NCBI GenBank assembly: GCA_037387345.1
Contig: JARRLD010000022.1
Coordinates: forward strand, 1 to 59,847
Reading direction: 5' to 3'
Source: Gemmatimonadota bacterium
GTDB lineage: Bacteria > Gemmatimonadota > Gemmatimonadetes > Longimicrobiales > Gaopeijiaceae
DNA length: 59,847 bases
In this document: positions 34,684-58,851 of the stretch, in pieces
Position numbering within the stretch: the first letter of the stretch is position 1
Layout: every line of letters starts with the position of its first letter
Translations under genes and position numbers: made by a program
The notes under the pieces: model-generated
Databases searched by the model: none
Told to the model about the DNA's origin: nothing
What the model saw: only the letters and a program-made list of their open reading frames with translations

Positions 34684-34732
34684 CTGGGCAAGCCCGATCC
34701 ATGGGAGTCATTCGCTTCGAAACGAGCTTGAA

Positions 34733-34762: not shown

Positions 34763-34780
34763 CGCCCCTCCGTTCCACCA

Positions 34781-34849: not shown

Positions 34850-34988
34850 CGGCGCCCCCACCTCTACCGGTGGGTACATTCACGTCCCCTCCGCCCTTGC
34901 TCGCCGTCAGGATGCCGGTTCAGAACGAGCCCCGTTCCGTCCATCCCTCCCGCCCTCCGCTGGCCCCTTCGACGCCTCCCGGGGACCC

Positions 34989-43830: not shown

Positions 43831-44577
43831 TCAGCCGCTCCCGGCGGGCCCTGCCCAGAAGGCCCACGCGATCCAGGGCCCGTCGTGGGACAGGGACACG
43901 TCGGCCGGGGCCTCCGAGCCGTCCAAGAGGACCATCGGCGGCTTCCGTTCGCCGAGCCCGGGATGTCTCACGATCTCGAGGCGCGCATCGTCCACGTCCA
44001 TCGCATGGGCCATTGCAGACCGGGCATCGATGCGGACCGCGACGGACACGGATGAGCTTGCCGCCTCGGCCTCCCGCGGGGACAGCAGATCCCGCAGCCT
44101 GTCTGCAGTCTCCTGTCCGTAGTGAGCGATCTCCGCCAGGCGACGCCTTCCTGCCACGATCTCATAGAGGAGGTCGATCCGACCCCCCAATATCGCCACG
44201 GCGTGGAGCACCCCGAACTCGTGCCTCACCTCGACCGGGGTCTCCACATTCTCACAGGAGACGACGCCTCTTCGGACGGTTGACTCGTCTCCCAACCGTG
44301 CCATGCCGCGGCAGGTCCAGGCCACGCGGAACGCCGCGTGGCCGAATACGGGAGGGCGCTTCCGCATCTTGGCCACGACCTTGTAGGCAGCCTCCTTCGC
44401 CGCCCACAGGCACCAGAGCTCGAGGTCGGGATCCGTTCTCGCGCTGAGCGCCGGACGCTCCGACGCGTCGAGGATCCGCGAGACGAACCGTTCGTCCCCG
44501 GCCTTGCCACGTACCCGGGGATTCGAGAGATCCACCACGTCGTTGCCCACAAGCACCGGCGGCGCCATCGTCGACAT
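43831..44577 (-). CDS. 4-prime-phosphopantetheinyl transferase family protein (Sfp-type)
   Basis: VGNDVVDLS...FVSRILDASE...WAAKEAAYK...VSLSHDGPWIAWAF. Start uncertain (ATG 44577 or 44568; track 44631). Confidence 0.72.
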   Translation of the reverse strand: MSTMAPPVLVGNDVVDLSNPRVRGKAGDERFVSRILDASERPALSARTDPDLELWCLWAAKEAAYKVVAKMRKRPPVFGHAAFRVAWTCRGMARLGDESTVRRGVVSCENVETPVEVRHEFGVLHAVAILGGRIDLLYEIVAGRRRLAEIAHYGQETADRLRDLLSPREAEAASSSVSVAVRIDARSAMAHAMDVDDARLEIVRHPGLGERKPPMVLLDGSEAPADVSLSHDGPWIAWAFWAGPAGSG

Positions 44578-44593
44578 CCTCCAGGTCGCTATG

Positions 44594-45922
44594 TCATGAT
44601 CCCCGGTACACGACTCGCCATATCCGACCACGGGAGGAATCGGATATGAACAGGGATCCGTCGGGGCCGGTGGATAGCCCTACGGGTCGCGCTACAGACG
44701 CGTTGTCACCCTCGCGGCGGAATCCGTCCGCGAAGGTCTCCCAGGTCGTGTCCGGTCCGTTCGCCGAGGCCGGAACGAAGACGACGCGGTAGCCGTCCTG
44801 GGGTCTTGGGGCCCGGTTCCAGGAACCGTGAAAGGCGATGAACGCGCCCCCGCGATAGGCAGCGGGGAACTGGGTGCCCGAGTAGAACTCCAGGTCATTC
44901 GGTGCCCAGTGAGCGGGGAAGCCGATGATGGGCATGTCCTTGTCGGCGCAGCGACCGACCTGGGCGCCGTCCCCGCCGTATTCCGGGGCCAGGACCTTGG
45001 CGCCGGTCTCGGGATCGTGGTAGCAGTACGGCCATCCGAAGTCGGATCCCTCAACAATCCGGACGAATTCCTCGGAAGGCTTTTCGGCGTTCTGATCCAC
45101 CGTGAAGAGGTCCGGGAACATGCCGTGCAGCTGGTCGCGTCCGTGCATGACACCGTATAGCACGTTGGTTCCCGGGTGGACCTGAAGCGCCACCACGTTT
45201 CTCAGGCCCGTCGCGAAGCGCGTGCCGTCGGCCTGGGTCTGACCCGTGCGGTCGGCGTCAAACCTCCAGATTCCCGCCCGATCTTCGAGTTGACGGCAGG
45301 GGTCCTGTCCGGGCGACCCCGCCGTGCGGCTCTCCACCATGCAGGCGTTCGACGGCGCCCCGATGTTCACGTACAGGCTTCCGTCCGACCCCAGGGCGAT
45401 GCTCTTGGCTGTGTGGTTCCGCGTGTCGGGCAGGCCGGAGACGATGGTGTCCGGCGGGCCGGAAGGCACCATGGCGCCTTCGTCGAGGGGATACCGCAAG
45501 ACCGCGTCGTCGGGAGCGTGATAGACGAACCCCTCGGCGATGAGCACGTCGTTCCCCCCGTTCTCGCCCCAGGTCTGCGAGCGGTCGGCAACCCCGTCGC
45601 CGTCGGTGTCCCGCAGCACGGTGACGCCCCCGGTCTGGATCGGGGCGTCGCGAGACGTCCTCCGGTTCCGTCGGGCGACGAAGACGTCACCGTTGGCGGC
45701 GATCTCCACGTGCCGCGTACCGGGGAGGCTGTCTACGAACAGGATGGCGCAGAATCCGTCGGGGAGCGTAATGCCTCCGTTGTCCGCAGCACACTGGCTG
45801 GCAAGCGCCGACGGTGTTTCCTCGCTGGGGGCCGCGGAGGATTCGTCCGGGCCCGATGAGCATGCCGCCGCGGCGCACGCGGCCAGGGCGGTCAGGAATC
45901 CGGGAACTGGGCGGATGGTCAT
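44594..45922 (-). CDS. PQQ-dependent sugar (glucose/sorbosone) dehydrogenase family lipoprotein
   Basis: ATG 45922 with GGAG upstream. Lipobox LTALAAC, then beta-propeller blocks ...GLRNVVAL..HPGTNVLYGVMHGRD...DFGWPYCY.... Confidence 0.82.
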   Translation of the reverse strand: MTIRPVPGFLTALAACAAAACSSGPDESSAAPSEETPSALASQCAADNGGITLPDGFCAILFVDSLPGTRHVEIAANGDVFVARRNRRTSRDAPIQTGGVTVLRDTDGDGVADRSQTWGENGGNDVLIAEGFVYHAPDDAVLRYPLDEGAMVPSGPPDTIVSGLPDTRNHTAKSIALGSDGSLYVNIGAPSNACMVESRTAGSPGQDPCRQLEDRAGIWRFDADRTGQTQADGTRFATGLRNVVALQVHPGTNVLYGVMHGRDQLHGMFPDLFTVDQNAEKPSEEFVRIVEGSDFGWPYCYHDPETGAKVLAPEYGGDGAQVGRCADKDMPIIGFPAHWAPNDLEFYSGTQFPAAYRGGAFIAFHGSWNRAPRPQDGYRVVFVPASANGPDTTWETFADGFRREGDNASVARPVGLSTGPDGSLFISDSSRGRIWRVVYRGS

Positions 45923-45985
45923 GGGGATCACTCCGATGGAATCGCTTGGGAGGAGTCGGACCATGGCAGATTCAGAAGTGGTCCG

Positions 45986-46441
45986 TCAGGGGTCAAGGGT
46001 GGCGACGTCGCCGGTTCCACCGAACCCCAGGGCGGCCTGGACCTCGGCGGGCACCCGCATGGGCCGACCGGACGGATCGACCCACACGGCGGTGACGAGC
46101 GCCCGGGCGATACCGACCTCCGGCTCGTCTGCCCGAGCGATATCCTGTTCGATCAGCAGGGTGGACCGTTTCCGGGAACGGGCCCAGGTGCGGATGCGCA
46201 GACGGTCGCCCAGCCGGGCCTGATGCAGATAGTCGATCTCGAGGCGAACCACGTACACCCCCCAGCCGCGGCGGATCATCTCCTCGTACGGGAACCCGCC
46301 CTGCCTCAACGCATCGTAGCGGGCGTACTCCAGATAGTTGAGGAAGATGGAGTGGTTGACGTGGTCGAAGGCGTCCAGCTCGTAGCTGCGGACCTCGACG
46401 GTGGTTTCGCTGACACGGACGTCGACGACAGGCTCCGGCAT
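45986..46441 (-). CDS. acyl-CoA thioesterase, YbgC/4HBT hotdog family
   Basis: ATG 46441: MPEPVVDVRVSETTVEVRSYELDAFDHVNHSIFLNYLEYARYDALRQ. The track start is TTG at 46477. Confidence 0.85.
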   Translation of the reverse strand: MPEPVVDVRVSETTVEVRSYELDAFDHVNHSIFLNYLEYARYDALRQGGFPYEEMIRRGWGVYVVRLEIDYLHQARLGDRLRIRTWARSRKRSTLLIEQDIARADEPEVGIARALVTAVWVDPSGRPMRVPAEVQAALGFGGTGDVATLDP

Positions 46442-46514
46442 GGAGTGAATAGACGGCGCCCTGCGCCTGGTGAGCAAGGCCGACGCCGCCGGAGCGCCGA
46501 CCGTATTCCGGGGC

Positions 46515-49500
46515 TCAGGGCTCGAGGTCCGGCCGATCCTCCATCAGGCCCTGGTCCCGGACCAGGTCGCCCAGCTGGATTCGTGAGCTCACATCCAGCT
46601 TCCGGAAGATGCTCGAGAGGTGGGTGCTCACCGTTCGAGGGGAGATTCCCATCTCCTTGCCGACGGCCTTGTTCGACAGACGGTGCGCCACGAGGCGGGC
46701 GACCTTGAGCTCCTTGGGCGTGAGGCCGAGCATCCCCTTCCCCCGGGGCGGAGGCCGTACGTCGAGCTCCCTCAGCTGCTTGCGGGTCTTCTCCAGCTCG
46801 ATCTCCGCGCCGAGCTTGGCGAAAACGTCGTGGATGTGGAGGAGCTCGGCCACGGCCTCCTCTTTCCTGTCGATGTCACGGAGGCGAGCGGCCAGCTGGC
46901 GACGGATGCGCACGGCGTAGGGGATCATGGGGATCTCCTCCAGCTTCTCCGCGGCCTGCATCATGCCCTGCGCGCCGCCTTCCGGATCCCCCCGCTTCCA
47001 CCGGACCAGCGCGTCGCAGGCGTCGGCCCAGGCCATGCCCAGCTTGTGATCCATCTTCTCGGCGTAGTCCCTGAGGCGGCGCCCCGCCGCTTCCGCCTCG
47101 TCGATCCGCTCGGCCCACAGCCAGGCCTCGGCGAGGATGGGGAGGAGCCGGTGCACCACGAGGAGATGGTACTCGGTGCCCTCGGCGATCTCGAGGGCCT
47201 GTCGGGCGGCGTCCGCTGCCTCCTCGTACTTGCCGACGGCCACCAGGTAGTGGGCCAGAGCGGTGAGAGCCGGGATGGTCCGGTAGACGGGACCCGGGCC
47301 CTCGGCATCGTCCTTCCTGGCGATCTCACACGCCTCGTCCACCAGGAGCTTCGCCCGGTCGAACTCGGCCCGTCCCAGGTAGAACTGGGAGGTAGCGGCC
47401 AGGAGCAGGGGCAGCAGGCTCTTCTGGTTGAGGTTGCGGGCCAGGGCGACGCTCTGCTCGCCCAGGGCGATGCCCTCGTCCCAATTGCCGGCGGCGTACG
47501 CGTGCTCGATGGACATCGTGGCGGTCCAGAGCCTCAGCACGGGGGAGCGGAGGCGATCCGCGAGAATCATGAGCTCGTCGAGCCCGTCTGCCATGCGCTG
47601 CGCGTCACCCCTCATCCCCCAGAGGACGGCCAGACCCCACCGGGCCCAGAACTCGGTCCGCAGGTCGGTGGCCTGTTGCGACAGCTCGATGGCCTTGGAG
47701 GCGTGCTCCTCGGCCGTGGCGGGAGGGCCGGTCCACACGTGGAGCAACGCCAGGGACCGCCGGACCCGCCCCAACAGCCTGGCATCGCCCAGCATCTCGG
47801 CCTCGGGCAGCGTACCGGTGACCTCCTCCAGGGCCTCCTTCGCCCGCCCCATCTCCTGGAGGCAGTGGAAGCGTGCGAGGCGAAGCCGGACCCGGGTGGC
47901 CCGGTCCCCCGCTTCCTCGGCGGACTCGAGGCCACGGTCCAGGATCTGGAAGGCCTCGTCCCGGCGTCCACACCAGAAGGAGGTCAGGCCGTGCATCCGA
48001 CACAGGCTGGCGTGGGCGCCCGTGCCGGGCTCGGCGCTCGCCACCGCCTGCTCCGAGAGCTTCCTGGCGGTCTCGTATTCTCCGAGACGCAGGTAGCACC
48101 GTGCCAGGTCGGCAGTGAGGGCTCTCCGTATCCCTTCGTAGCCATCCCCGGGGGATCCGGTGACGCGCTCGAGAGCAGCCTGCAGGTACCCGACGGCCTC
48201 CCGGTCGGCGTGACGTTCCAGGGCCGCGCGACCCGCCGCGGTCAGATACGTCACGGCTTTCACGGAGAGGCGGGCCGCGTCGGTCCGGGCGAAGTGGTAC
48301 GCCAGCTGGTCGGCATGCTGGACGGCCGCCTCGCCCCAGTACGCCTCCATGGCCTCGGCCACGGCTCCATGGAGCAGCCGGCTGCGCTGTAGCCCCAGCT
48401 CCCGGTAGAGCACCTCCCGCATCACCGGATACCGGTAGTCGTACAGCACCCTGCCCCCCTCCACCTGCTCCACGAGGACGCCGTTCGCCACGAGCTCCTC
48501 CAGGGCAGCGAGAAGCTCCGGCTCCTCGAGGCCGCTGATGGATACCAGAAGCGGATAGGCCGCCCTCGAGCCCATCACCGTAACCAGTTCGGCCACGGCC
48601 TGAACGTCACTGCTGAATCGTGCCACCCGCGTGACCACGGCGTCACGGACGGAGCCGGGCAAGGCGAAGTCGCGGGCGTCCCAGCCCACCCAGGTGCCCT
48701 TGTGGCTGGACAGGGCACCGGTCGCGACCAGGGATTTGAGGGTCTCGCCGACGAAGAACGGGTTGCCGCGGGTCCACCCGAACAGCATGGCCGAGAACTC
48801 GCGAACCATGTCCGATGCCACGGTAAAGACCCGACACACCAGCTCGGTCACCTGTTCCCGGGTCAGCGCATCGAGGCTGATGGCGTGGACGACCCCGAGG
48901 GAGATGAGCGATCGCTCGGCCCTCACCAGTCGGGGGCTTCGATCCCGCTCGACGACGTCGTAGGTGCACAGGAGGAGCACCGGGTGCTCGGTGAGCTGCC
49001 GGGCCAGGAAATGGATGAGCTCGAGCGACGACGCGTCGGCCCAATGGAGGTCATCGAGGCAGACCAGGAGGGGTGAGCGGGAGGCGTAGCTCTTCAGGAA
49101 CTCGGCGAAGGTCCAGTAGAGGCGCGTCCGGAACTCCTCGGGATTGGCTCCCTCCGGGTCCTGGGCCGGATCGCGGTGGGGCCCCAGAGCAGGGAAGAGG
49201 TACTCCAGGTCGCGTTCCCCTCCACGGCTGAGGACCGCCAGCGTGTCGGCGTCCATCGCGTCCAACAGCGGCTGGAACGCGTCGGAGAACAGGGCGTAGG
49301 GGACGCCCTGCTCCATCGGATAGGCCCGGCCCCGGGCCACGGTCCAGCCCCGGCGTTCGGCGCGGGCGGCCAGCTCCCTGGCCAGGCGCGTCTTGCCCGA
49401 GCCCCGCTCGCCCGAGATCAGGGCAAGGGACACGGGATGCCCGGGGTGGAGCAGCCCCTCCAGCTCCGCCAGCTCCGCCGTCCTGCCGACGAGAGGATAG

Positions 49501-49559
49501 GGGCCTTGGAGAGGGTCCACCGGACCAGAGGCTGCAGGCTTGCGTGTGGCCGACATCAT
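46515..49559 (-). CDS. large LuxR-family regulator: AAA/STAND ATPase, TPR-like repeats, C-terminal LuxR HTH
   Basis: ATG 49559. LVGRTAELAELEGLL...LISGERGSGKTRLA (P-loop) ...LVCLDDLHWAD (Walker B), about 500 aa of helical repeats, then LTPKELKVARLVAHRLSNKAVGKEMGISPRTVSTHLSSIFRKLDV. Confidence 0.85.
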   Translation of the reverse strand: MMSATRKPAASGPVDPLQGPYPLVGRTAELAELEGLLHPGHPVSLALISGERGSGKTRLARELAARAERRGWTVARGRAYPMEQGVPYALFSDAFQPLLDAMDADTLAVLSRGGERDLEYLFPALGPHRDPAQDPEGANPEEFRTRLYWTFAEFLKSYASRSPLLVCLDDLHWADASSLELIHFLARQLTEHPVLLLCTYDVVERDRSPRLVRAERSLISLGVVHAISLDALTREQVTELVCRVFTVASDMVREFSAMLFGWTRGNPFFVGETLKSLVATGALSSHKGTWVGWDARDFALPGSVRDAVVTRVARFSSDVQAVAELVTVMGSRAAYPLLVSISGLEEPELLAALEELVANGVLVEQVEGGRVLYDYRYPVMREVLYRELGLQRSRLLHGAVAEAMEAYWGEAAVQHADQLAYHFARTDAARLSVKAVTYLTAAGRAALERHADREAVGYLQAALERVTGSPGDGYEGIRRALTADLARCYLRLGEYETARKLSEQAVASAEPGTGAHASLCRMHGLTSFWCGRRDEAFQILDRGLESAEEAGDRATRVRLRLARFHCLQEMGRAKEALEEVTGTLPEAEMLGDARLLGRVRRSLALLHVWTGPPATAEEHASKAIELSQQATDLRTEFWARWGLAVLWGMRGDAQRMADGLDELMILADRLRSPVLRLWTATMSIEHAYAAGNWDEGIALGEQSVALARNLNQKSLLPLLLAATSQFYLGRAEFDRAKLLVDEACEIARKDDAEGPGPVYRTIPALTALAHYLVAVGKYEEAADAARQALEIAEGTEYHLLVVHRLLPILAEAWLWAERIDEAEAAGRRLRDYAEKMDHKLGMAWADACDALVRWKRGDPEGGAQGMMQAAEKLEEIPMIPYAVRIRRQLAARLRDIDRKEEAVAELLHIHDVFAKLGAEIELEKTRKQLRELDVRPPPRGKGMLGLTPKELKVARLVAHRLSNKAVGKEMGISPRTVSTHLSSIFRKLDVSSRIQLGDLVRDQGLMEDRPDLEP

Positions 49560-49904
49560 CACCGTCCGGGTGATGGGAGTGCTCCGGTGAGATCCCCAAG
49601 CTATGGTTCCAATGGACCTTACGACAGGATGTACGGAAGCGGCATCCCGCCTGGAGCCCTCCTTCGGGGAGCGGCGCGGCACCCTTGGGAGGTCCATGTC
49701 CCGGGAGGGGGCGTCGGGGCCGATACTCATCAAGCGTCTCCTGAGATGGCGATCGGAGGTATCGACATCCAAGATCTGCCGACCTCGACGGCCGGGCCCT
49801 ACGGCAGAGTACGTACCCGACCCCCGGCAGTGACGTAGACTGGCGGGCCAGGCCAGGCGACCGCGCGGAGAGATCGAGGTCCTACGTGGTGGTCCGACTG
49901 ATAG

Positions 49905-50621
49905 TTAGACGGCCTCCGCCACGTTGCCGAACCGCCGCTGTCGCCCGTGGAAGGTCCGAACCGCCATGGCCAGGTCGGCCGGGGTGAAGTCCGGCCACAT
50001 CCTGGGCGTGAAGAAGAGCTCCGCGTAGGCGCACTCCCACAGCAGGAAGTCGCTGAGGCGCTGCTCGCCACCGGTACGGACCAACAGGTCGACGTCGATG
50101 GCCGGTCCCCCGCCATGGACCACCGTGCCCAGGGCGTCGGCGAGCTTTTCCCGGCCGGCTCCGGTCGTGTTGCACAGGCGTGCGGCCGCGGTCAGCGCTT
50201 CCCGGGCGGAGTAGTCCACGGCGAGCCGCAGAAGGAGTCGGCGGCCCCCGGCGGTGGCCGCCTCCGAGCGCTCGATGGTCTGGAGCAGCGTTGGGGCGAG
50301 GCGATCCCTGCGCCCCAGGATCTGGAGTCGGACGTCCTTCTCCGCCAGGGCGCCGGTCTCGGACCGCAGGTACCGGCGGAAGAGGCTCATGAGGCTGTCG
50401 ACCTCTCTTCGTGGCCGACGCCAGTTGTCCGACGAGAACGCGTAGAGGGTCAGGACGCCTATGCCCAGGTCGGGCGCGGCTTCCACGACGGGTCGCACGG
50501 CCCGAGCACCGGCCCGGTGGCCCCACTCCCGGGGCCGCCCTCGTGCCATGGCCCAGCGGCCGTTGCCGTCCATGATGAGGCCCGCGTGTAGGCCAGGCGG
50601 ATGTGGTGGAGCACTTTGCAT
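49905..50621 (-). CDS. uppS: isoprenyl transferase (undecaprenyl diphosphate synthase)
   Basis: [13 protein letters not shown]...[14 protein letters not shown]...[30 protein letters not shown] 50621 preceded by GGAGGTG. Confidence 0.93.
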
Positions 50622-50657
50622 CACAGAGTCACCTCCGAAAAAAATAGAGCTGCCATT

Positions 50658-51059
50658 CTAATCCTTGTCTCCCTCCCGCGTCGTCCTGATGATCGCCTCC
50701 ATGTGCTCGAGATACGCGGCCAGGGCCCGGCGCCCCGTGTCGGTAAGCGCGTACTCCGTCTTCGGCGTTCGCCCTTCGAAGGACTTCTCGCAGAGGACGT
50801 AGCCGGCATCCTCGAGCTTGCGGGCGTGGGCGCTGAGGTTGCCGTCGGTGGTTCCCAGGAGATCCCGAAGCTCGGTGAACGGGAGGGTGCCATTCACCGC
50901 CAGGGCGCTGACGATTCCGAGGCGCACGCGCTCGTGGATGAGTCGATCCAGGTCGAGAGGCCCCTGGTCGAGGCCGTGCCCAGGTACCGACCCCAGGGTC
51001 GGTCGACTCCCGGACCGGGGTCCGCCAGGTCGGGGCGCGGGCTCCCGCTCAGCCCCCAT
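50658..51059 (-). CDS. winged-helix transcriptional regulator (ArsR/MarR-like, HTH_34-type)
   Basis: ATG 51059. LIHERVRLGIVSALAVNGTLPFTELRDLLGTTDGNLSAHARKLEDAGYVLCEKSFEGRTPKTEYALTDTGRRAL. Overlaps the upstream membrane-protein gene by 11 nt. Confidence 0.75.
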   Translation of the reverse strand: MGAEREPAPRPGGPRSGSRPTLGSVPGHGLDQGPLDLDRLIHERVRLGIVSALAVNGTLPFTELRDLLGTTDGNLSAHARKLEDAGYVLCEKSFEGRTPKTEYALTDTGRRALAAYLEHMEAIIRTTREGDKD

Positions 51060-51666
51060 ATCTCCTCCAGATGACGCCACCGAACGCCAGGTGCAGGCCG
51101 CCGAAGCCGAGGGCCATGAGCCCGTCACCCCAGGAGGCCGGCGCGAACAGGGCCACGGCGCCCAGGGTCATGAAGAGCGATCCCATCAGGGGGACCACGC
51201 GAACCGAAAACGCGCCTCCGGTGACGACGCCGGTCCCGTACATCAGCAGCCAGGTTCCGGGCAGCAGCTCGGTCAGGCCCTCCCGGAGGAAGGCGAGGGT
51301 GAGGAGTCCGCCGACCAGCAACGGCGGGCTCACGTTCCAGGCGAATTTCGTTCCCGCACCTGCGAGGAGCGTGGTTCCTGCGGCCCGTGCCTTGGAGCTC
51401 ATGGCCCAGAGGGCTACGGCCAGCGCCAGCGCCGCCGCACCCATCCAGACGGCCACCCAGCCGGACGGCGACGAGGGAACCTGGGCGCCCGCCGCGGCGA
51501 GCAGGGCCACGAGACCCATGACGATGCCCCCTCGACCGGATACGGCGGTGAAGGAGCCCGACCGCTCCATGGTCTCCCTGATGAAGCGGATGTCGTCCAG
51601 CGCCCGGTCGTGGAGAGCGAGCGGTGGCTGCGCCTTCCTGGGGGCCCTTGGCATGGACATGGACAT
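51049..51666 (-). CDS. hypothetical polytopic membrane protein, partner of the winged-helix regulator
   Basis: 205 aa with 5-6 hydrophobic helices (GIVMGLVALLAAAGA, WVAVWMGAAALALAVALWAM, PPLLVGGLLTLAFL...). ATG start. Confidence 0.6.
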   Translation of the reverse strand: MSMSMPRAPRKAQPPLALHDRALDDIRFIRETMERSGSFTAVSGRGGIVMGLVALLAAAGAQVPSSPSGWVAVWMGAAALALAVALWAMSSKARAAGTTLLAGAGTKFAWNVSPPLLVGGLLTLAFLREGLTELLPGTWLLMYGTGVVTGGAFSVRVVPLMGSLFMTLGAVALFAPASWGDGLMALGFGGLHLAFGGVIWRRYGG

Positions 51667-51756: not shown

Positions 51757-52755
51757 TCAGGCGGTGGGGGGTGGCGTGACGACGCGCAGGGCCTGCGGGA
51801 GGATTTGTGCCACGACGGTCGGGTCCTGCGCGTTCCGTATGTCACCGTCCATCTCGAACCGGGGCGGCCGGTCGAAGTCCAGGCGGAAGCGGGTGTCGGA
51901 CAACACCTCCACCCGGGGGTCCAGGACATGGCGTCCCCGCTGGGCCAGGTTGAACAGCCTAAGGCGGCCCAGTGGGGTCGCGTCACCGATACGACAGGCA
52001 TGGAGACAACCGTCGTCCATGCGGGCCTCGGGCGCGATGGGGAACCCCCCGCCGAAATATCGTCCGTTGGACACGGTGAGCATGAGGTGGGTCTCATCCC
52101 TCCTCGTCCCTTCGGATGTCTCGAGGCCGAAGCGGACCCCGGGGAACCGAAAGAGCTGCTGCAGAGCGGTCACCTTGTAGAGCAGCTCACCCCTCAAGAA
52201 GCGAGCGCGCGCCGCAGCATCGATCACGGCGATGTCGAAGCCGAACCCGATGAGGTTGATGAAGTGCCGTGCCTCGGACAGCTCGGGTCGGTGCTCGGAG
52301 GCGCTGGGCGTCTCCAGCCGGCCGACGTCGATGGCCCGGGTGTGCCCGGTCCGCAGGACGCGAACCGCCTCCCCTGGGTCGGACGGATCGAAGCCGAGGT
52401 TTCGCCCGAAGTCGTTCCCGGTGCCGTTGGGAAGGACGCCGAACACCACGTCCTCGCGGCCCGACGCCACCACGCGGTCGGCCACGTTGCTCCAGGTCCC
52501 GTCCCCGCCGACCGCCACCAGCAGCTCGTACCCGCCCGCCAGGGCCCGATCGGCAAGATCCCGCTCCTCACCCGCGAACGTGGTGATCCCGAAGCCGAAG
52601 CCCGGCAGCTCGTCGGCCAGCAGCGCCTGGTAGCTGGCCAAACGCCTGGCACCTCGGCCCCGCCCCGCGGCGGGGTTGAAGATGACGAACGTCTTTCGCG
52701 CCGCCTTCAGATGGACTCCAGGGGCTCGAACGTCTGCAGGCCCGCCTGATACCAC
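51757..52755 (-). CDS. diacylglycerol kinase catalytic-domain lipid kinase (YegS/BmrU family)
   Basis: FVIFNPAAGRGRG...LVAVGGDGTWSNVADR...LPNGTGNDFGRNLG...DGD. The only in-frame start is GTG 52755, which overlaps the upstream gene by 49 nt. Confidence 0.85.
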   Translation of the reverse strand: MVSGGPADVRAPGVHLKAARKTFVIFNPAAGRGRGARRLASYQALLADELPGFGFGITTFAGEERDLADRALAGGYELLVAVGGDGTWSNVADRVVASGREDVVFGVLPNGTGNDFGRNLGFDPSDPGEAVRVLRTGHTRAIDVGRLETPSASEHRPELSEARHFINLIGFGFDIAVIDAAARARFLRGELLYKVTALQQLFRFPGVRFGLETSEGTRRDETHLMLTVSNGRYFGGGFPIAPEARMDDGCLHACRIGDATPLGRLRLFNLAQRGRHVLDPRVEVLSDTRFRLDFDRPPRFEMDGDIRNAQDPTVVAQILPQALRVVTPPPTA

Positions 52756-53369
52756 TGCTCACGGAACGGATAGGTGGCGATGTCGTCGATGGTGAGACCC
52801 TCGGTCATGGCGTGCCGGTAGAGCGTGAGGGAGCCGTTCTCCTCCTCATGCTCCGAATGGGGGCCCTCCATGTAGATGTTCGCCTTGAACCGGGCATCCC
52901 CGTCCACGGTGAAGGCGCTGTACATGTTCTTGGACGGGCGGTACTCGTGCTGGGTGACCATGAGGTCCAGGATGGGGCCGTCCTCGTCGCGGACCCTCAC
53001 GTCCATGGTGTCCCCGTCCTCATCGAAGTCCATGGTCACGTCCTTCATGAGGTGGGGGAGGTGCCAGCGGTCGATGGCGTGGAGGCGTGCGGCCTCGGTG
53101 GATGTCGCCACCATGAATGGGTAGAACGCGGCTTTGGGGAGCGGCCTGTCCGGCTCCACCATCGGGGGAACGATGATGGCCATCACAAGCTCGTCATAGG
53201 CCCCAACCGTGCTTTCCGTGAACTGGAATGCCATGACGGAGAGAATGCTCCTCGTGTGCTGCATCTCCATGGGCTGGAGATGGCGGGGCAGCAGCCCGCG
53301 GGCATCGGCCGTAGGCATCTCGAAGAAGGCGCCGACGCAGTTCTGGAAGCCGTAGTAGGTGTACTCCAT
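52707..53369 (-). CDS. acetoacetate decarboxylase (ADC)-like family protein (tentative)
   Basis: 220 aa with good coding character. The layout Y...F....ADARGLLPRHLQPME...SVMAFQF...GAYDELVMAIIVPP...AIDRWHLPHLMKDV resembles ADC-like beta-cone proteins. The assignment comes from pattern memory only. Confidence 0.4.
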   Translation of the reverse strand: MEYTYYGFQNCVGAFFEMPTADARGLLPRHLQPMEMQHTRSILSVMAFQFTESTVGAYDELVMAIIVPPMVEPDRPLPKAAFYPFMVATSTEAARLHAIDRWHLPHLMKDVTMDFDEDGDTMDVRVRDEDGPILDLMVTQHEYRPSKNMYSAFTVDGDARFKANIYMEGPHSEHEEENGSLTLYRHAMTEGLTIDDIATYPFREQWYQAGLQTFEPLESI

Positions 53370-53378
53370 GTCCTCTCG

Positions 53379-54290
53379 ATGTCCTCTCTGGTTCTCTTCC
53401 GCAAGATCCGGCGGGGCGCGGGACCGCTTGATGCACCTCCGCTGATCCGATTACCCTACGCCGTCATTCCGAGCACCGGCCCGCCGGTGTCTCGACTCGT
53501 TCCTGAAACAGGCGCCCCCTTGTCGACGCTCCGAGGCTATCTGGCCCTCTTCCTTGTGCTCTCCGGCCTGCTGCTGTGCGACCCGGTCCAGCGGTTCGTC
53601 GTCGCACCGGCGGTCCGCCTCTTTCCCTCCCGCCGCGGGAGGATCCTCACCCGATGGCAGCAGGCCCTGGCGAGATTCATCCTGCGATGCTTTGCCAGCG
53701 TGGGCGGTGCGCACATCCCGAAGCTGCCCCGCCTTCCGGCCGACCCTGGCACCCTCGTCATCATGAACCACCAGTCGGTCCTCGACATCCCGCTGGTGGT
53801 CGCTTCGATGGACGGATCGTACCCTCTCATCGTTACGCGCCGGCGCTATTTTCGATGGATTCCGCTAATCTCGCACATGCTGCGGCTCTATCAATACCCG
53901 GAGGTGGACCCGACGGCAAACACCGCGAAGGCCAGGAAGATGTTGACGGATCTCAGCGTGGTGGCACGGGATGCCGCTCCACCGGTGGCCATCTTTCCCG
54001 AAGGCACGCGGACCCGGGACGGGGAGATCGGACGCTTCAAGACCCGGGGACTGAGGAAGATCCTCTCCCAACGCTCCTGGACGATCTGGGTCCTGGTGAC
54101 CGACGGGTTCTGGGAGCGGGCCAAGATGAAGCATTTCGTGGGCGGGATGGGTCGGATTGACGGCCGGATCGAGATGCTGGGGCCGTTCCGTTGGGAGGAG
54201 GCGGAGGCAGATCCGCGGGAGTTCATCGCCGGGATTCGGCAGCGGATGATCGAGGTGCTCGAGAAGATGCGGGCCGGTCTCCCGGCATGA
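53379..54290 (+). CDS. lysophospholipid (1-acyl-sn-glycerol-3-phosphate) acyltransferase, PlsC family
   Basis: Acyltransferase motif I (MNHQSVLD), motif III FPEGTRTRDGE, and an N-terminal TM (YLALFLVLSGLLL). The start is uncertain. ATG 53379 lies only 10 nt from the divergent gene; GTG 53487 is an alternative. Confidence 0.8.
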   Translation: MSSLVLFRKIRRGAGPLDAPPLIRLPYAVIPSTGPPVSRLVPETGAPLSTLRGYLALFLVLSGLLLCDPVQRFVVAPAVRLFPSRRGRILTRWQQALARFILRCFASVGGAHIPKLPRLPADPGTLVIMNHQSVLDIPLVVASMDGSYPLIVTRRRYFRWIPLISHMLRLYQYPEVDPTANTAKARKMLTDLSVVARDAAPPVAIFPEGTRTRDGEIGRFKTRGLRKILSQRSWTIWVLVTDGFWERAKMKHFVGGMGRIDGRIEMLGPFRWEEAEADPREFIAGIRQRMIEVLEKMRAGLPA

Positions 54291-55307
54291 GCGGGCCGCC
54301 GCGCCCGGTGCCCGGTACGGACCAAACGCCGGGCCTCGCCCTGGCCCGGGCGCTCACCGAGAGGGCCGGGCCTCGCCCTGGCCCGGGCGCTTACCGAGAG
54401 GCTGGTCGAAACCGCCCAGGGGTCGGTGGAGGCCGTGTTCCTGTACGGCTCGCATCTTCACGGAGCCAGGCCGGGCCGCCACAGCGCCCTGGACCTGGTC
54501 ATCGTGGTGGAGGACTACCGGAGGTTCTACGACGGGCTCTGCACCGCCGGGGAGATCCACCGCCCGGCGTGGCTTCTCGTCGCTCTCGCCCACGTCCTGC
54601 CTCCCAACGTCATCGCGTTCCAGACGGACGAGGCTGCCGGTGACGGAGCCTTGGCCAAGTGCCTCGTGGTGAGCCGGCGGCATCTGGAGCGGGCGCTGGC
54701 GGAGAAGCCTCCCGACCACTTCCTCTTGAGCCGGATGGTTCAGGAAGTGGGCCTGGTATGGGCGAAGGACGCGAACCGACGATCCTGGGTGATGGCGCGC
54801 ATCCAGCACGCCCGGGCCGGCGTGCTGGCCTGGGTGGGGCCCTTCCTTCCGGCCGTGTTCGACGCAGGCACCTTGGGCCGGACCATGATGGAGGTCTCCT
54901 ATCGGGCGGAGTTCCGCCCCGAGGCCGCCGACCGTTCGGAGGTCATCTTCGAGAGCCAGAAGAGACACTTCGAATCCCGATTCACGCCGATATTGAAGGA
55001 GGCGGCGTCCGCCGGAGTCCTCGAGCGCACGGACGGGGGGTACCGGTATACGGCGGGACGCAAGCCCAGGCGCGTCGCCTTCGGGCGCGGATACTTCGCT
55101 CGGTCGAAGGCCAGGGTCACCGCCCGGTGGCTCAAGCACGTGCTGACCTTCGACAAATGGCTTCCCTACATCGTTCGGAAGGTGGAACGGCGGACCGGGA
55201 CGACCATCGAGCTGACGCGCCTGGAGCGACGTTGGCCCGTCATCTTCCTCTGGCCCAGGGTGATCCGGGTGCTGCGCTACCGTCCGGACACGGAGGAGCC
55301 CTCTTGA
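54287..55307 (+). pseudogene. nucleotidyltransferase-fold protein, Tam41/Mmp37-like (putative CdsA-independent CDP-diacylglycerol synthase), 5-prime end disrupted by a 37-bp tandem duplication
   Basis: ATG 54287 overlaps the plsC-like stop (ATGA) and encodes MSGPPRPVPGTDQTPGLALARALTER. The second repeat copy then shifts the frame. The main ORF (track 54426-55307, GTG) reads VEAVFLYGSHLHGARPGRHSALDLVIVVED...ALAKCLVVSRRHLERALAEKPPDHFLLSRMVQEVGLVW.... Removing one repeat copy gives one continuous ORF. Confidence 0.5.
54328..54401 (+). repeat. perfect-register tandem duplication, 2 x 37 bp with one mismatch
   Basis: gccgggcctcgccctggcccgggcgctCaccgagagg occupies 54328-54364 and gccgggcctcgccctggcccgggcgctTaccgagagg occupies 54365-54401. 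37 is not a multiple of 3. The single C/T difference (54355 vs 54392) is synonymous (ctc vs ctt, Leu) in the respective coding frames. Confidence 0.95.
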
Positions 55308-56041
55308 GACGCGATCTCGCCGTGCTGGTGGTGGTGCTTGGCGTGGCCTTGTTGTCCATGCCCCTGTACGGGCTCGGCCGGGCAGGGCGGGGCAGCGATC
55401 CGCTGGATGTGGCGGATCGCGGTTCCTTCGTCCTCGGGGCGTTCGCGCGCAGGTGGTTCTACTGGTTCATCGGACCGGCGGAGCGGCTCGCTCTGGTTGC
55501 AGGGCTGGGCCCGCTGTTCTTCAATCTGCTGGGCGTGGCGTTCGGGGTGGTGGCCGCCGTCTGCTTCGGTCTGGGACGCGTAAGCCTGGGCGGCTGGATG
55601 GTGCTCCTGGGAGGAGTCGCCGACATCCTCGACGGACGGATCGCCCGTGCGCGGGGCCTGGCGGACCCCAGGGGCGCGTTCCTGGATTCCACCCTGGACC
55701 GCTTCGCCGAGTTTGCCGCCTTCATCGGGTTGGCGGTCCTGTTCGCGGACTCCCGGGTCGGCTTGATCCTGGTCGTGACGGCCCTGGGCGGCTCGCTTCT
55801 GGTGAGCTACGCCCGGGCTCGCGGAGAGAGCGTGGGCGTCGTCTGCAAGCTGGGCGTGATGCAGCGGGCGGAACGACTCCTGGCAGTGGGCTTCGGCGCC
55901 ATCCTGGATCCCACCCTGTCCGCATGGCTGGGCGGCCGGGCGCCGGGCACGCTGCTGGTACCGGTGCTGGGTGTCGTAGCGGTCGGCACCGTCGGCACGG
56001 CCGTATATCGCACCGTCTGGATCAGTCGTAAACTGTCGTAA
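55304..56041 (+). CDS. CDP-alcohol phosphatidyltransferase family protein
   Basis: DILDGRIARARGLADPRGAFLDSTLDRFAE matches D-x2-D-G-x2-A-R...G-x3-D-x3-D, with multiple TM helices. The proposed TTG 55304 overlaps the preceding stop (TTGA); ATG 55358 is an alternative. The upstream part of the track ORF (54659-) is rejected. Confidence 0.85.
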   Translation: MRRDLAVLVVVLGVALLSMPLYGLGRAGRGSDPLDVADRGSFVLGAFARRWFYWFIGPAERLALVAGLGPLFFNLLGVAFGVVAAVCFGLGRVSLGGWMVLLGGVADILDGRIARARGLADPRGAFLDSTLDRFAEFAAFIGLAVLFADSRVGLILVVTALGGSLLVSYARARGESVGVVCKLGVMQRAERLLAVGFGAILDPTLSAWLGGRAPGTLLVPVLGVVAVGTVGTAVYRTVWISRKLS

Positions 56042-56232
56042 GTCCCGGCCCGACTTTACGATCCGACGGTCCGCCGGAAGCTGGGCACCGTGCCGTGCAG
56101 GGCGGCCATGGAGCTCCGGTCGACCGGCCCTCACAGGGGGAGGATCCCCCGAATCCGGCCCATCCAGCCATCCCTCTCGGTCGCCCCCGGCGGCAGATTT
56201 TGCTCCGAGGACATCACGGGAGGCTTCGAGGA

Positions 56233-57558
56233 ATGATGGCTGTGAAACGAGGAGCGGTGGCTCACCAGGGACCCGACGGACGGAGGCGGCGCGTGCATGC
56301 GCGCCGGCGCGTCAGACGATGGATGGGGGTTACGCTTCTGTGGTCGTGCGCACCCGCGGCGGCGCAGGTTCCGTCCGGATCAGGGGTGTGCTCGTGGACC
56401 GTTGCGGGGCGGCAGCTCCTTTCCCTGGAGTCGGGCGACCTGGCCTACGTCGAGGCGCGGTCGTTGTCGGCCACCGAAAGGGGCATGCTCCTGCTGGGCT
56501 CGCCTTCCTACGTCTGGTCACGAGGCGCCCAGTCGGGTGTGGTCGTGCCCCGGGACTCCGTCGTCGGGGCCGTGATCGACTCGACAGGCTCCGCACGCGC
56601 CGTGCCGGCGCCTCTTCCCGGCGCCGAGATCCGTGGCCTCTCCGCTGTCGGAAACAAGGATGGCACCTGGTCAGTGGCGTTCACGGTGCTCCGGCCGGAG
56701 ACGCGGTTCCCGGAAGACGAGGTGGCTGGACAGCTCGGCTACGGTTCGTTCGACGGGCGCGAATGGACCGACCTCCAGACCGAGCCGATTCCTCGAGACG
56801 TGGCCCTCAACCCCATGAGGCCGTCCCCACTGGTGAGGGGCGAAGGAGGAGGGCTTCTCTGGTCCCTCCCCACCCGGGCTCGTGCGGCGAACGCAGGCGT
56901 CGCCATTCTGCGCCGGGTGGGAAGTCATTGGCGGTTGACGACGGACACCCCGTCACGCGTTTTCGGGCTGAGCGTTGCCCATATCCCGTCCTGGGGCGAG
57001 GTGGTCGCCATCGCCAGGGCGGACACGATCAGCTCGATGCCGAGGGGGACCCTTCGGCTCGAGTCCGTGGAGCTGGGCGGAGGCGTCGCCGAAGCGTTCC
57101 GCTTCGATCCCGGGCCGGGGAACCTCTGGGACCCCGTGTTCGACCGCGGCCAAGACCCCAGATGGATCGGCTGGCTGTCGGAGGCTGCGGACGAAGGGCT
57201 CGCACGACTCGAGGCTCGAGCGGCCCCCCTCTACCCGCGCGACGAGCGCCAGAAGGTCATGGTCCTCGACTCCAACTCCGCGGCGCTCCACCCCCTAGGC
57301 GTTCTGGACGGCGGGGCGTCCTATTGGATCAGCCATCACACCGGCGAGGAGAGCCAGATTGTCCTGGTGCGAACGGGCGACGTCGGCGTCGAACGCGAGC
57401 TCACCATGCCGAATCCGTTCGTCGGGCCCTTCGGAGCCGTGGCCCCGGGTCCCTCCAGGGTTCTCCTCGCCGGACCGCTGATGGGGCGTGACGAGCGATC
57501 CCCACCGGTAACGACCCTGATGATTCACCTGAAGCGAACGTGCCGGGAGGCATCCTAG
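56233..57558 (+). CDS. secreted hypothetical protein, possibly a BNR/Asp-box beta-propeller
   Basis: ATG 56233 (MMAVKRG...) after GGGAGG. Arg-rich signal RRRRVHARRRVRRWMGVTLLWSCAPAAAQ. Two Asp-box-like motifs are present (NKDGTWS, SFDGREWT). No firm family. Confidence 0.5.
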   Translation: MMAVKRGAVAHQGPDGRRRRVHARRRVRRWMGVTLLWSCAPAAAQVPSGSGVCSWTVAGRQLLSLESGDLAYVEARSLSATERGMLLLGSPSYVWSRGAQSGVVVPRDSVVGAVIDSTGSARAVPAPLPGAEIRGLSAVGNKDGTWSVAFTVLRPETRFPEDEVAGQLGYGSFDGREWTDLQTEPIPRDVALNPMRPSPLVRGEGGGLLWSLPTRARAANAGVAILRRVGSHWRLTTDTPSRVFGLSVAHIPSWGEVVAIARADTISSMPRGTLRLESVELGGGVAEAFRFDPGPGNLWDPVFDRGQDPRWIGWLSEAADEGLARLEARAAPLYPRDERQKVMVLDSNSAALHPLGVLDGGASYWISHHTGEESQIVLVRTGDVGVERELTMPNPFVGPFGAVAPGPSRVLLAGPLMGRDERSPPVTTLMIHLKRTCREAS

Positions 57559-57627
57559 CCCGTCGTCACGTCGGGGCCATCCAAAGCAGATCGCCCCTGT
57601 GTTTCCTACCCCCCCAGGAGGAGTGTC

Positions 57628-58371
57628 ATGTCCACGCAGAGACGCTTGGCTCTATTGATCGCGGTGTTTCTCTCTGGCCCGATGGCCTGCAGCGAAGAAC
57701 CCGTTGCTCCGAAGGCCGTGCTCGACGAACCGGGCGGGGTGACGGTGCCTGGCCACGACCTGGAGCTCACCCTGCCCCTTCCGGAACGAGCCGCGAACGC
57801 AGGACCCTCCGCCCGAGCCGATGAGCCTATGCCGGCGGATCTTCCCGAGGAGTACGACCTGGAGGCGGCCCTGATCAGCAAGGCCACCAGCAGTCCCTAC
57901 GTCGCCTACGGACGGGCCGGGAACCAGGCGAAGACCACCTTCACGGGCAACCGCATCAAGGTCGACGTCTACACCACGGTGACCTTCCTCGCCGAGCCCC
58001 TCGTCACGGAATTCCTGCAGACCACCCAGGACAGCTACTTCTGGCCCCAGACCGAAAAGCGGCACGACGCGTTCTCGCAGATCGCGATCGAAGGCTCCTG
58101 CGGACACACCGCCTCGGGTCGCGCCCAGCACGTCGTGTGGATCGACTACGGACCCTACGAGTGGGGGGAGACCGAGCGGCCGAGCAACGGGAAGCCCTAT
58201 TCGCAGCGGGACTGTGAGACCGACGACGCTCCTGTGGACGATCCGCGGACCGGGAGTGGAGGAGACGAGCCTCCTCCCGGGGAGATCTATACCTGCTGGT
58301 ACCGTTACACCTACGACATCTACACAGGCGAGGTCCTCGAATTCGAGCTCCTGTACTGCGAGACCACCTGA
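57628..58371 (+). CDS. hypothetical lipoprotein with four additional conserved-looking cysteines
   Basis: AGGAGGAG RBS. MSTQRRLALLIAVFLSGPMAC lipobox, acidic/Pro linker, then a globular part with Cys in EGSCGHT, QRDCETD, IYTCWYRY and LLYCETT. No family recognised. Confidence 0.55.
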   Translation: MSTQRRLALLIAVFLSGPMACSEEPVAPKAVLDEPGGVTVPGHDLELTLPLPERAANAGPSARADEPMPADLPEEYDLEAALISKATSSPYVAYGRAGNQAKTTFTGNRIKVDVYTTVTFLAEPLVTEFLQTTQDSYFWPQTEKRHDAFSQIAIEGSCGHTASGRAQHVVWIDYGPYEWGETERPSNGKPYSQRDCETDDAPVDDPRTGSGGDEPPPGEIYTCWYRYTYDIYTGEVLEFELLYCETT

Positions 58372-58404
58372 GACCCCATCACCAAACAACCGAGGTCGCA
58401 TATC

Positions 58405-58851
58405 ATGTCTCTGAACCAATGGCTCTCCCGTCACCTTTCGCTGGCGTTCCTCCTCCTCGGGGCGCTCTCCGCTCCGTCCGCCCTGTGGGCGCAGGCATCG
58501 GGCGGCATAATCATCTCGGTGCCGGATCGGTTTCCCGAGGTCAACGGCAGACCTGTTGCCCTGGTCCTCACCGAGGCCGACCGGTCGGTCATCGTGCTTC
58601 GCCGGGACAGATTGAATCCGCGGGCGCTGGAAGCCGCGCTCAGGATTGCGGCGAAGGCCGGCGTGGACGAAATCCCGGCCGGACAGGCAACGGTCGATGT
58701 CGTGACCGGGTTCGTGGTGAGGAGAGGGATCCGGGGCGAGCGAATGAAGGCCCTACGGCAGGTGATCGACGCACTCCGCGGCGCGCCGACTTCATCCCTG
58801 GGATCGATGGGGACAGGGAGGTGGGTACGCTGGTACCCCGAGGGGTCCTAG
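58405..58851 (+). CDS. hypothetical secreted protein
   Basis: MSLNQWLSRHLSLAFLLLGALSAPSALWAQA signal peptide. 148 aa, no family recognised. Co-directional with the two preceding genes. Confidence 0.5.
   Translation: MSLNQWLSRHLSLAFLLLGALSAPSALWAQASGGIIISVPDRFPEVNGRPVALVLTEADRSVIVLRRDRLNPRALEAALRIAAKAGVDEIPAGQATVDVVTGFVVRRGIRGERMKALRQVIDALRGAPTSSLGSMGTGRWVRWYPEGS

Follow-up and report, generated by a model that had tools for sequence, protein, structure and literature searches.

A divergent Tam41-like nucleotidyltransferase in a probable lipid head-group gene cluster conserved across Gemmatimonadota

Here we describe a cluster of five genes in a 59,847-nucleotide stretch of DNA from a Gemmatimonadota bacterium (Longimicrobiales, Gaopeijiaceae; contig JARRLD010000022.1 of assembly GCA_037387345.1; the whole stretch is called the window below). 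The central gene encodes a nucleotidyltransferase (NTase) with the fold and the catalytic motifs of Tam41, the CDP-diacylglycerol (CDP-DAG) synthase of mitochondria. On balance we favour the reading that the five genes form a lipid head-group module kept throughout Gemmatimonadota, in which a PlsC-type acyltransferase, a Tam41-type CDP-DAG synthase and a transferase resembling phosphatidylinositol phosphate (PIP) synthase act one after the other, and the three enzymes probably make up a self-contained phospholipid route. This reading is carried by the predicted structure of the NTase, by sequence profiles, by a gene order that is kept almost without exception in the phylum, and by fusions between the genes.

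Results

The nucleotidyltransferase has the fold and motifs of Tam41

The NTase is treated here in its repaired form (see below). Its AlphaFold2 model, made from an alignment of 46 homologues (predicted local distance difference test, pLDDT, 84.9; predicted template-modelling score, pTM, 0.85), matches the two-domain fold of Tam41, NTase plus winged helix, and Foldseek places Tam41 in the first four ranks of its PDB matches. The best is the Tam41 of a Firmicutes bacterium with bound CTP-Mg (7ecd; E 7.4e-8, template-modelling (TM) score 0.65 on the target, 276 aligned columns), and Schizosaccharomyces pombe Tam41 is matched at E 2e-6 to 9e-6 (6ig4/6ig2). TM scores normalised to target length are 0.51-0.65 for Tam41 as against at most ~0.36 for full-length matches to other families, the next of which, ANT(4'), scores ~0.3.

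Sequence profiles were compared with the same structures and with Pfam Tam41_Mmp37 (PF09139). A profile search of 1.8 billion representative sequences returned 1023 relatives, and in these 1.8 billion sequences the close-family profile reaches the PF09139-carrying proteins P0181 and P0204 over their full length (E 1.6e-45 and 1.3e-39). When the close family is combined with distant representatives into a wider profile of 75 sequences in all, the PDB yields the Tam41 of S. pombe (6ig2, E 2e-11) and that of the Firmicutes bacterium (7ecd, E 1.9e-7). A preliminary description of this DNA, drawn from its letters alone, had proposed the relationship to Tam41 and had stated that the lack of any profile or structure match would speak against it; the Foldseek match to 7ecd and the wider-profile match now support it. 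Of the 75 relatives, 45 individually match PF09139, the family that it had named for a check, at E <= 0.01 (best 8e-16), but the repaired window protein scores 13.0 bits (E 0.066; residues 26-236 on profile positions 3-219 of 322) and falls short of the gathering cut-off of 24. Among the close homologues 14/46 match PF09139 at E <= 1, the best at 1e-4. Pfam Polbeta is found on the repaired NTase at E 0.0075, and a phmmer search of the PDB with this single sequence gave no Tam41, only a spurious match to a repeat protein.

The profile alignment to solved Tam41 pairs NTase residues with the YGS, D, KYGV, GRFQK and SYLGDIR motifs, which reproduces the correspondences (YGS, D, K-x-x-V-x-S, G/S-R-x-x-Q/K) that the preliminary description had drawn. 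G42, S43, D57, K112 and R137 are invariant throughout the 75 sequences, R198 is kept in 90% or more of them, while Y193 and E196, the latter conserved in the close family, align with the Tam41 motif SYxGDxR, E196 standing opposite its D. The position two residues after D57 is never acidic, and of the three acidic positions that are canonical for NTases the protein retains a single one; Tam41 itself is credited with only one of the three in the account of it in PMC11646218.

The tail of the protein (residues 246-327) has a net charge of +15 and contains 22 K/R as well as 11 aromatic residues; the hydrophobic moments of the NTase peak at residues 258-290. Tam41 is a peripheral membrane protein whose C-terminus forms a basic amphipathic membrane helix (PMC7018664), and from its composition the NTase tail would be a parallel to this anchor and may likewise bind the membrane. 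The last 80 residues also carry a conserved motif of their own, RSKxRxxxRWxKHxxTFxxWLxYxxRKxER, outside the Tam41 match. We file the NTase as a divergent sister clade inside the Tam41 superfamily rather than as a member of the Pfam-defined Tam41_Mmp37 family.

The acyltransferase-NTase-transferase unit is conserved, and its genes are sometimes fused

We collected 79 NTase loci, with ~10 kb on each side, from bacterial and archaeal contigs at one genome per species; counts of neighbours take in only those loci whose contig is long enough. All 79/79 loci belong to Gemmatimonadota (Gemmatimonadales and Longimicrobiales), and the clade was found in every lineage of the phylum that was sampled, annotated throughout as 'hypothetical' and not seen by Pfam. 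Conserved synteny of the three-gene unit was another point on which the preliminary description had staked its proposal, and it is close to complete: the acyltransferase lies directly before the NTase in 75/75 loci and the transferase directly after it in 73/75 (counts for the other neighbours are given in Table 1).

The junctions of the unit are also bridged by fusions. Acyltransferase and NTase are joined in one protein in four family representatives (P0132, P0146, P0148, P0155), and in P0172 the NTase is fused to the transferase, the membrane transferase taking the place of the basic tail. Such fusions are Rosetta-stone evidence that acyltransferase, NTase and transferase act in sequence at the membrane.

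Some members of the wider family have other partners. Two carry a cytochrome P450 fused at the C-terminus (P0123, 1152 aa; P0125, 756 aa) and one (P0252) an N-terminal endonuclease/exonuclease/phosphatase domain; these fusions may represent other lipid-modifying combinations. Separately, the metagenome-assembled genomes Ww583 and HN14.bin.27 each hold two contigs with the acyltransferase-NTase-transferase unit (L047 / L054 and L057 / L059), which indicates either paralogous copies or a mixture of strains in the bins.

Layout of the cluster and the enzymes on either side of the NTase

According to the list of open reading frames (ORFs) of the window, the cluster spans 51757-56041 and consists of five genes in two divergent groups, in a window of ~67% G+C; the kinase, Tam41-domain and CDP-alcohol transferase families are all present within 4.3 kb. 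The three plus-strand genes are consecutive, with a 4-base overlap at each junction: the ATG of the NTase (54287-54289) overlaps the TGA of the acyltransferase (54288-54290), and the TTG start of the transferase (55304-55306) overlaps the TGA of the NTase (55305-55307). These are the ATGA and TTGA overlaps that the preliminary description reported, and the catalytic motifs that it named are likewise present, at the positions given below.

The acyltransferase passes the PF01553 cut-off (55.3 bits against 23) and contains both catalytic blocks of its class, HX4D (NHQSVLD, 53766-53786) and FPEGTR (53994-54011). NCBIfam AGP_acyltrn scores 47 bits on it, and the nearest solved structure in the PDB is Thermotoga maritima PlsC (5kym, E 5.9e-7). 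Its start is ambiguous, being either ATG 53379 or GTG 53487.

The CDP-alcohol phosphatidyltransferase scores 39.6 bits on PF01066, for which the cut-off is 22, and has the complete motif D1xxD2GxxAR...GxxxD3xxxD4 (DILDGRIAR...GAFLDSTLD, in full DILDGRIARARGLADPRGAFLDSTLD, 55622-55699). Its best NCBIfam models are archin_ph_syn (E 5.4e-34), which describes archaetidylinositol phosphate (AIP) synthase, and then PIPSynth (E 7.5e-26). The scores are below the equivalog cut-offs in each case (archin_ph_syn 117.7 against 180, PIPSynth 91 against 170, PIPSynBT1523 88 against 350), and we therefore file the enzyme as PIP-synthase-like and not as PIP synthase. The best PDB matches are the PIP synthases of Renibacterium, Mycobacterium tuberculosis and M. 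kansasii (5d91/5d92, 6h53 and 6wm5; E ~1e-13). In M. tuberculosis PgsA1 the phosphate of inositol phosphate is bound by R94, S132, R137, R152, R155 and R195 (PMC6506517), and all six are conserved in the transferase in a phmmer alignment to 6h53; D4 is followed by an R, and the transferase also has the motifs SYARAR, QRAER and YRTVW. Enzymes of the PIP-synthase class use a CDP-lipid donor and a phospho-alcohol acceptor, which fits a liponucleotide synthase encoded upstream. A comparison with cardiolipin synthases, made in the preliminary description, has to be given up: PIP synthases are closer, and models of cardiolipin and phosphatidylglycerophosphate synthases score far worse (ClsA E 0.0017 against 5e-34 for AIP synthase).

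The divergent genes

The two minus-strand genes had been called an acetoacetate-decarboxylase (ADC)-like gene and a YegS/BmrU-type kinase, and both names stand. The kinase is recognised by DAGK_cat and YegS_C at E 1e-25 to 1e-27, passes TIGR00147 (125.3 bits against 118.65) and has the ATP-binding GGDG at residues 83-86 (52498-52509). The ADC-like protein scores 28.3 bits on PF06314 and misses the cut-off of 29.8, hence 'ADC-like' only; it had no NCBIfam match and no sequence match in the PDB, and its single-sequence AlphaFold2 model was unusable (pLDDT 41.6). It is nonetheless the best-conserved protein of the cluster, with 74% mean column identity and an invariant SEHEEE, and is 89% identical to its counterpart in a relative whose NTase is 77% identical.

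A 37-bp duplication breaks the NTase frame in this contig

The preliminary description implied that the NTase gene is frameshifted and can be restored by taking out one copy of a repeat, and this is what we find. Tandem Repeats Finder reports a repeat of period 37 at 54328-54401 (2.0 copies, 97% match), and removal of either 37-bp copy joins the ATG at 54287 to the frame 54426-55307 to give a protein of 327 aa; homologues are ~325 aa long and cover the repaired N-terminus. An intact 327-aa allele (P0288), identical to the repaired NTase at 324/327 positions (99%), is present on two Joint Genome Institute (JGI) metagenome contigs (L087, L088) that have one repeat copy and the same overlapping gene arrangement. 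The closest species-level relatives (L001, L075 and L005, with an NTase 77% identical) have a single 37-bp copy as well. Because the relatives and the near-identical contigs carry one copy, the duplication is private to this contig.

A frame-breaking duplication means that the Tam41-like gene is either inactive in this strain or mis-assembled. In the first case it would be a true pseudogene, or an allele inactivated through a slippage-prone repeat, so that the pathway would be off in the strain and the module dispensable and redundant with CdsA; we regard this as a serious, if not the favoured, possibility. The duplication, whose length is not a multiple of 3, cuts off the first 38 codons of the repaired ORF, which run from ATG 54287 through copy 1 and include much of helix 1. 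The two copies differ by one base, so that plain copying of one from the other does not account for both. If real, the frameshift would argue for redundancy of the Tam41-like enzyme. However, the 99%-identical intact allele comes from two independent metagenome contigs with the gene arrangement unchanged, the rest of the downstream NTase frame is undamaged, and the 79/79 species loci match unbroken; a 37-base repeat with a single-nucleotide difference could arise in the short-read assembly of two co-existing strains.

Related cassettes lie beside sphingolipid genes in other lineages

On a metagenome contig of unknown phylum (L090), the ADC-like gene, the kinase, the NTase and the transferase all have clear orthologues in a single operon; identities are 43% for the ADC-like protein, 37% for the kinase and 52% for the transferase. 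In this operon (L090:2248-9785) the cassette is preceded by a short-chain reductase and an aminotransferase resembling serine palmitoyltransferase (Spt) instead of the PlsC-like gene, and an AMP-binding ligase comes after it, which suggests a form of the module linked to sphingolipids. In Alphaproteobacteria, distant members of the NTase family follow immediately on a DAGK_cat kinase, with spt-acp-epimerase-ligase genes and LptF/G paralogues next to them (L086:5995-7864 and L089:5047-6900); the sphingolipid locus of Caulobacter has the same layout, and the position is that of cpgC. A search seeded with one of these cpgC-position proteins returned Alphaproteobacteria (Geminicoccaceae, Rhodospirillales) and one UniRef entry named 'Phosphatidate cytidylyltrans...', with no named Caulobacter entry among its best 120 matches.

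In Caulobacter, cpgA encodes a CDP-alcohol-transferase-domain protein and cpgB a ceramide kinase, cpgC is required for making ceramide phosphoglycerate out of ceramide phosphate, and deletion of cpgC leads to accumulation of ceramide phosphate (PMC9393093). CpgC (CC_1161) was first described as a protein without a conserved domain; later a CDP-DAG-synthase domain was assigned to it in InterPro and its product was suggested to be NDP-ceramide (PMC11324152). As late as 2025 the mechanism of CpgC was described as unidentified (PMC12275187). Since relatives of the NTase hold the cpgC position, phosphatidate cannot be the only lipid phosphate that the family uses. The Gemmatimonadota loci are of another kind: neither within ~10 kb on each side of the NTase in the 79 loci nor in the window is there an Spt homologue, and the linkage to ceramide genes (spt, acp, cerR, bcerS) was not found.

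CdsA in the window

A regular-expression search of all six frames found no CdsA signature (KDx5PGHGGx2DRxD) in the window, and CTP_transf_1 is absent from the Pfam results on 43 window genes. In many bacteria cdsA lies directly downstream of uppS. The preliminary description had noted that uppS at 49.9 kb is not followed by cdsA here and had characterised the cluster as one with a Tam41-like gene rather than CdsA; with the positions of uppS confirmed and no CdsA motif in the window, the first statement is correct and the second holds for the cluster. A search of the literature on Gemmatimonadetes or Gemmatimonas together with CdsA or cytidylyltransferase found nothing relevant.

Neighbouring genes and other features of the window

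The features of the cluster and its surroundings are collected in Table 1. A scan for promoters and terminators over 49.7-56.4 kb gave nothing exceeding chance. The region 43831-49772, upstream of uppS, encodes in addition to the enzymes in the table a GSDH/NHL-like beta-propeller protein and a 1085-aa AAA_16/TPR/GerE (LuxR-type) regulator; the order phosphopantetheinyl transferase-propeller-thioesterase-uppS was seen again in a distant relative (L004), and the AAA_16/TPR/GerE regulator in many loci. Two intervals, 41761-43820 and 56095-58851, hold well-framed genes (G+C at third codon positions, GC3, > 0.79) without a Pfam match, two of them after a sigma-54 two-component pair and three on the downstream side of the transferase, where the first gene is kept in the closest relatives only, at 60% identity.

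The window also contains the chromosomal replication-origin region (25973-37779), in which parB, parA, mnmG, mnmE and yidC form a minus-strand run adjoined by dnaA (34782-36383) and dnaN (36667-37779), both on the plus strand. The minimum of the cumulative GC skew is at 34-36 kb, and the origin is about 15-20 kb from the lipid cluster.

Table 1. Features of the lipid gene cluster and its surroundings, in window coordinates, with the share of Gemmatimonadota loci in which each neighbour of the NTase was found
Feature	Position	Strand	Match or remark	Loci
4'-phosphopantetheinyl transferase	43831-44631		upstream of uppS	
4HBT thioesterase	45986-46477		upstream of uppS	
UppS	49905-50624	-	Prenyltransf found on uppS orthologue	50/60
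HTH_34 (helix-turn-helix) regulator	50658-51128	-	Pfam HTH_34 E 2.6e-25	53/63
205-aa polytopic membrane protein	51049-51666	-	no Pfam match	55/66
YegS/Rv2252/BmrU-family lipid kinase, putative diacylglycerol kinase	51757..52755	-	DAGK_cat E 1.8e-25, YegS_C E 8.3e-27	63/70 (near NTase)
ADC-like (acetoacetate-decarboxylase-like) protein, first gene of divergent operon	52707..53369	-	Pfam ADC E 1.5e-6 (sub-threshold)	70/74 (near NTase)
PlsC-type (LPLAT) acyltransferase, N-terminal membrane helix	53379..54290	+	PF01553 E 7.9e-15	75/75 (directly before NTase)
Tam41/Mmp37-like nucleotidyltransferase, putative CTP:lipid-phosphate cytidylyltransferase, frameshifted	54287..55307	+		
37-bp tandem duplication, two copies, one mismatch	54328-54364 / 54365-54401		breaks NTase frame	
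CDP-alcohol phosphatidyltransferase, PIP-synthase/archaetidylinositol-phosphate-synthase type	55304..56041	+	PF01066 E 8.6e-10	73/75 (directly after NTase)

Discussion

A proposed route to a head-group lipid

From these data we infer the substrates of the enzymes, the order of their reactions and the identity of the head group as follows. The genes would be transcribed in two divergent operons, with the three plus-strand genes translationally coupled. The membrane-bound PlsC-type acyltransferase would convert lyso-phosphatidate to phosphatidate, and the peripheral Tam41-type cytidylyltransferase, held at the membrane through its very basic amphipathic C-terminal tail, would use phosphatidate and CTP to make CDP-DAG. 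The PIP-synthase-like transferase would then move the phosphatidyl group to a phosphorylated or otherwise anionic alcohol, our best guess being inositol phosphate, and the YegS-type kinase would return diacylglycerol to the route as phosphatidate. The ADC-like protein has no step in this scheme. The pairing with PlsC and the lack of Spt within 10 kb in the 79 loci make phosphatidate the most likely substrate in Gemmatimonadota. The idea of a route through phosphatidate and CDP-DAG to a head-group lipid by way of a mitochondrial-type synthase, first put forward in the preliminary description, is thus supported by fold, profile and synteny.

Several observations weigh against this proposal. The Tam41-like gene is frameshifted in the very window studied, and its product taken by itself stays under the Pfam Tam41 gathering score (13 against 24 bits); the close-family profile, too, failed to reach Tam41 directly in the PDB. 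The transferase is under the NCBIfam equivalog cut-offs for PIP and AIP synthase, and no inositol-1-phosphate synthase (MIPS) was found among the 43 scanned window genes. With phosphatidate already supplied by PlsC, nothing but salvage would explain why a kinase is needed. Finally, the ADC-like/kinase/NTase/transferase cassette stands beside a serine-palmitoyltransferase-like gene in another lineage (L090), and distant relatives of the NTase hold the cpgC position in sphingolipid loci.

The last two points bear on an alternative that we consider unlikely for Gemmatimonadota, namely that the lipid phosphate is not a glycerolipid: the kinase would have ceramide or a different lipid alcohol as its substrate, the product of the Tam41-like enzyme would be a CDP-activated lipid such as CDP-ceramide, and head-group addition would fall to the transferase. 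A scheme of the same form has been put forward for CpgB and CpgC of Caulobacter, where the accumulation of ceramide phosphate in the cpgC deletion (PMC9393093) and the CDP-DAG-synthase domain and proposed NDP-ceramide product of CC_1161 (PMC11324152) point the same way, as do the Spt-like aminotransferase and short-chain reductase of the L090 operon and the alphaproteobacterial family members between a DAGK_cat kinase and spt-acp-cerR-like genes. However, the operon partner in Gemmatimonadota is a PlsC-type glycerolipid acyltransferase in 75/75 loci, sometimes fused to the NTase, and an Spt homologue is found within 10 kb in 0/79. The window kinase scores best on models of YegS/Rv2252-type diacylglycerol kinases, and a BLASTP comparison with the CpgB-position kinases of L086 and L089 gave no match below E 1e-3.

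A Kennedy-type route, in which the NTase would make CDP-inositol, CDP-glycerol or CDP-glycerate and the transferase would move the alcohol onto diacylglycerol, appears very unlikely. CDP-alcohol transferases as a class take either CDP-lipids or CDP-alcohols, although the window transferase falls among enzymes whose donor is a CDP-lipid and whose acceptor is a phospho-alcohol, and it keeps their arginines for the acceptor phosphate. Cytidylyltransferases of the 'NTP transferase' family differ in fold from the Tam41-like NTase, which has Tam41 architecture down to the basic tail. Pairs of an NTase and a CDP-alcohol transferase that follow Kennedy-type logic are known or have been proposed (PMC9246714; CpgD and CpgA, PMC12275187), but the cytidylyltransferases for soluble substrates described there are annotated in that other family, as 'NTP transferase' with homology to phosphocholine cytidylyltransferase (PMC9246714).

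That the NTase has nothing to do with lipids, being an aminoglycoside NTase or an MNT-type toxin/antitoxin component that neighbours lipid genes by chance, is effectively refuted by structure, profile, fusions and synteny: weak Pfam matches (Polbeta E 0.0075, Adenyl_transf in relatives) and the presence of ANT and HalB lower down the Foldseek list could be taken that way, but the TM scores of ANT and HalB (~0.25-0.36) are well under those of Tam41 (0.53-0.65), the second and third canonical acidic residues are absent, and the protein is linked to lipid enzymes by both its conserved gene order and its fusions.

What the cluster may mean

Tam41 is commonly presented as the counterpart of CdsA in mitochondria, and its bacterial homologues, recognised since 2022, have come with little physiological context. 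The preliminary description went too far in calling the bacterial family essentially uncharacterised: the structure of the Firmicutes enzyme is solved, and its product in vitro is CDP-DAG (Kimura 2022, as cited in PMC11646218). The kind of enzyme is therefore already known, and what is new is a divergent, unannotated, phylum-wide clade in a distinctive and sometimes fused operon. It offers a concrete, testable pathway for a soil phylum that is abundant but hard to find in culture and of whose lipid biochemistry little is known, and the fusions are evidence for substrate channelling between acyltransferase, liponucleotide synthase and head-group transferase.

A bolder possibility, which we hold to be quite unlikely, is that Gemmatimonadota have handed bulk CDP-DAG synthesis to the Tam41-type enzyme and lost CdsA, the ADC-like/kinase/Tam41-like/transferase cassette being a portable unit that installs head groups. 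The cluster adjoins uppS, which in most bacteria is the place of cdsA. If so, a whole bacterial phylum would build its phospholipids with a 'mitochondrial' type of enzyme, and the absence of CdsA would bear on the origin of the mitochondrial one. A portable unit would activate whichever lipid phosphate is supplied to it, giving CDP-DAG in the company of PlsC and CDP-ceramide, a product that has never been demonstrated, in the company of Spt/Cpg.

Comparison with known systems

The head-group module that we propose shares parts with several described systems. With Tam41 itself (6IG2/6IG4, 7ECD) the NTase has in common the two domains, the YGS, single Asp, KYxV, GRFQK and SYxG(D/E)xR motifs and a basic tail; it differs in being only ~13-18% identical, in scoring below the Pfam gathering threshold, and in sharing an operon with an acyltransferase and a CDP-alcohol transferase, to which it is sometimes fused. 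CdsA catalyses the same reaction as that proposed here, and uppS adjoins the Tam41-like cluster in 50/60 loci, but CdsA is an integral membrane protein with no sequence or structural homology to Tam41, as set out in a review.

The actinobacterial phosphatidylinositol route (CdsA, PgsA1, Rv2252) resembles the cluster in two enzymes, since the transferase keeps the metal- and inositol-phosphate-binding residues of PIP synthase and the window kinase belongs to the YegS/Rv2252/BmrU family. In that route, however, CDP-DAG comes from the integral-membrane CdsA, and for the window transferase the model of archaeal AIP synthase gives a slightly better score than that of PIP synthase. In Prevotella and Bacteroides vulgatus, the alternative inositol-lipid cluster is likewise a dedicated head-group cluster that pairs an NTase gene with a CDP-alcohol phosphatidyltransferase gene, and its NTP transferase has been proposed to make CDP-inositol (PMC9246714). 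That enzyme belongs to NCBI cl11394 and has a phosphocholine-cytidylyltransferase motif, whereas lipid activation is what the Tam41-like character of the window NTase points to.

Of the known systems, CpgABC of Caulobacter (ccna_01217-01219) comes closest; it brings together the CDP-alcohol transferase CpgA, the DAGK_cat/LCB5-type kinase CpgB and the Tam41-domain protein CpgC (PMC9393093, PMC11324152, PMC12275187). The Cpg genes adjoin spt, acp and cerR and act on ceramide, whereas in Gemmatimonadota a PlsC-type acyltransferase and an ADC-like gene belong to the cluster and Spt is absent within 10 kb. A kinase, a Tam41-like protein and a CDP-alcohol transferase thus form a recurring cassette, which in Gemmatimonadota is paired with a glycerolipid acyltransferase. 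The cassette is found in company with backbone genes of either glycerolipid or sphingolipid type, an argument that in both settings the Tam41-like enzyme activates a lipid phosphate by cytidylylation. Its recurrence also provides a comparative handle on CpgC, and implies that CpgC may itself be a Tam41-type cytidylyltransferase, as judged from gene context and from PMC11324152.

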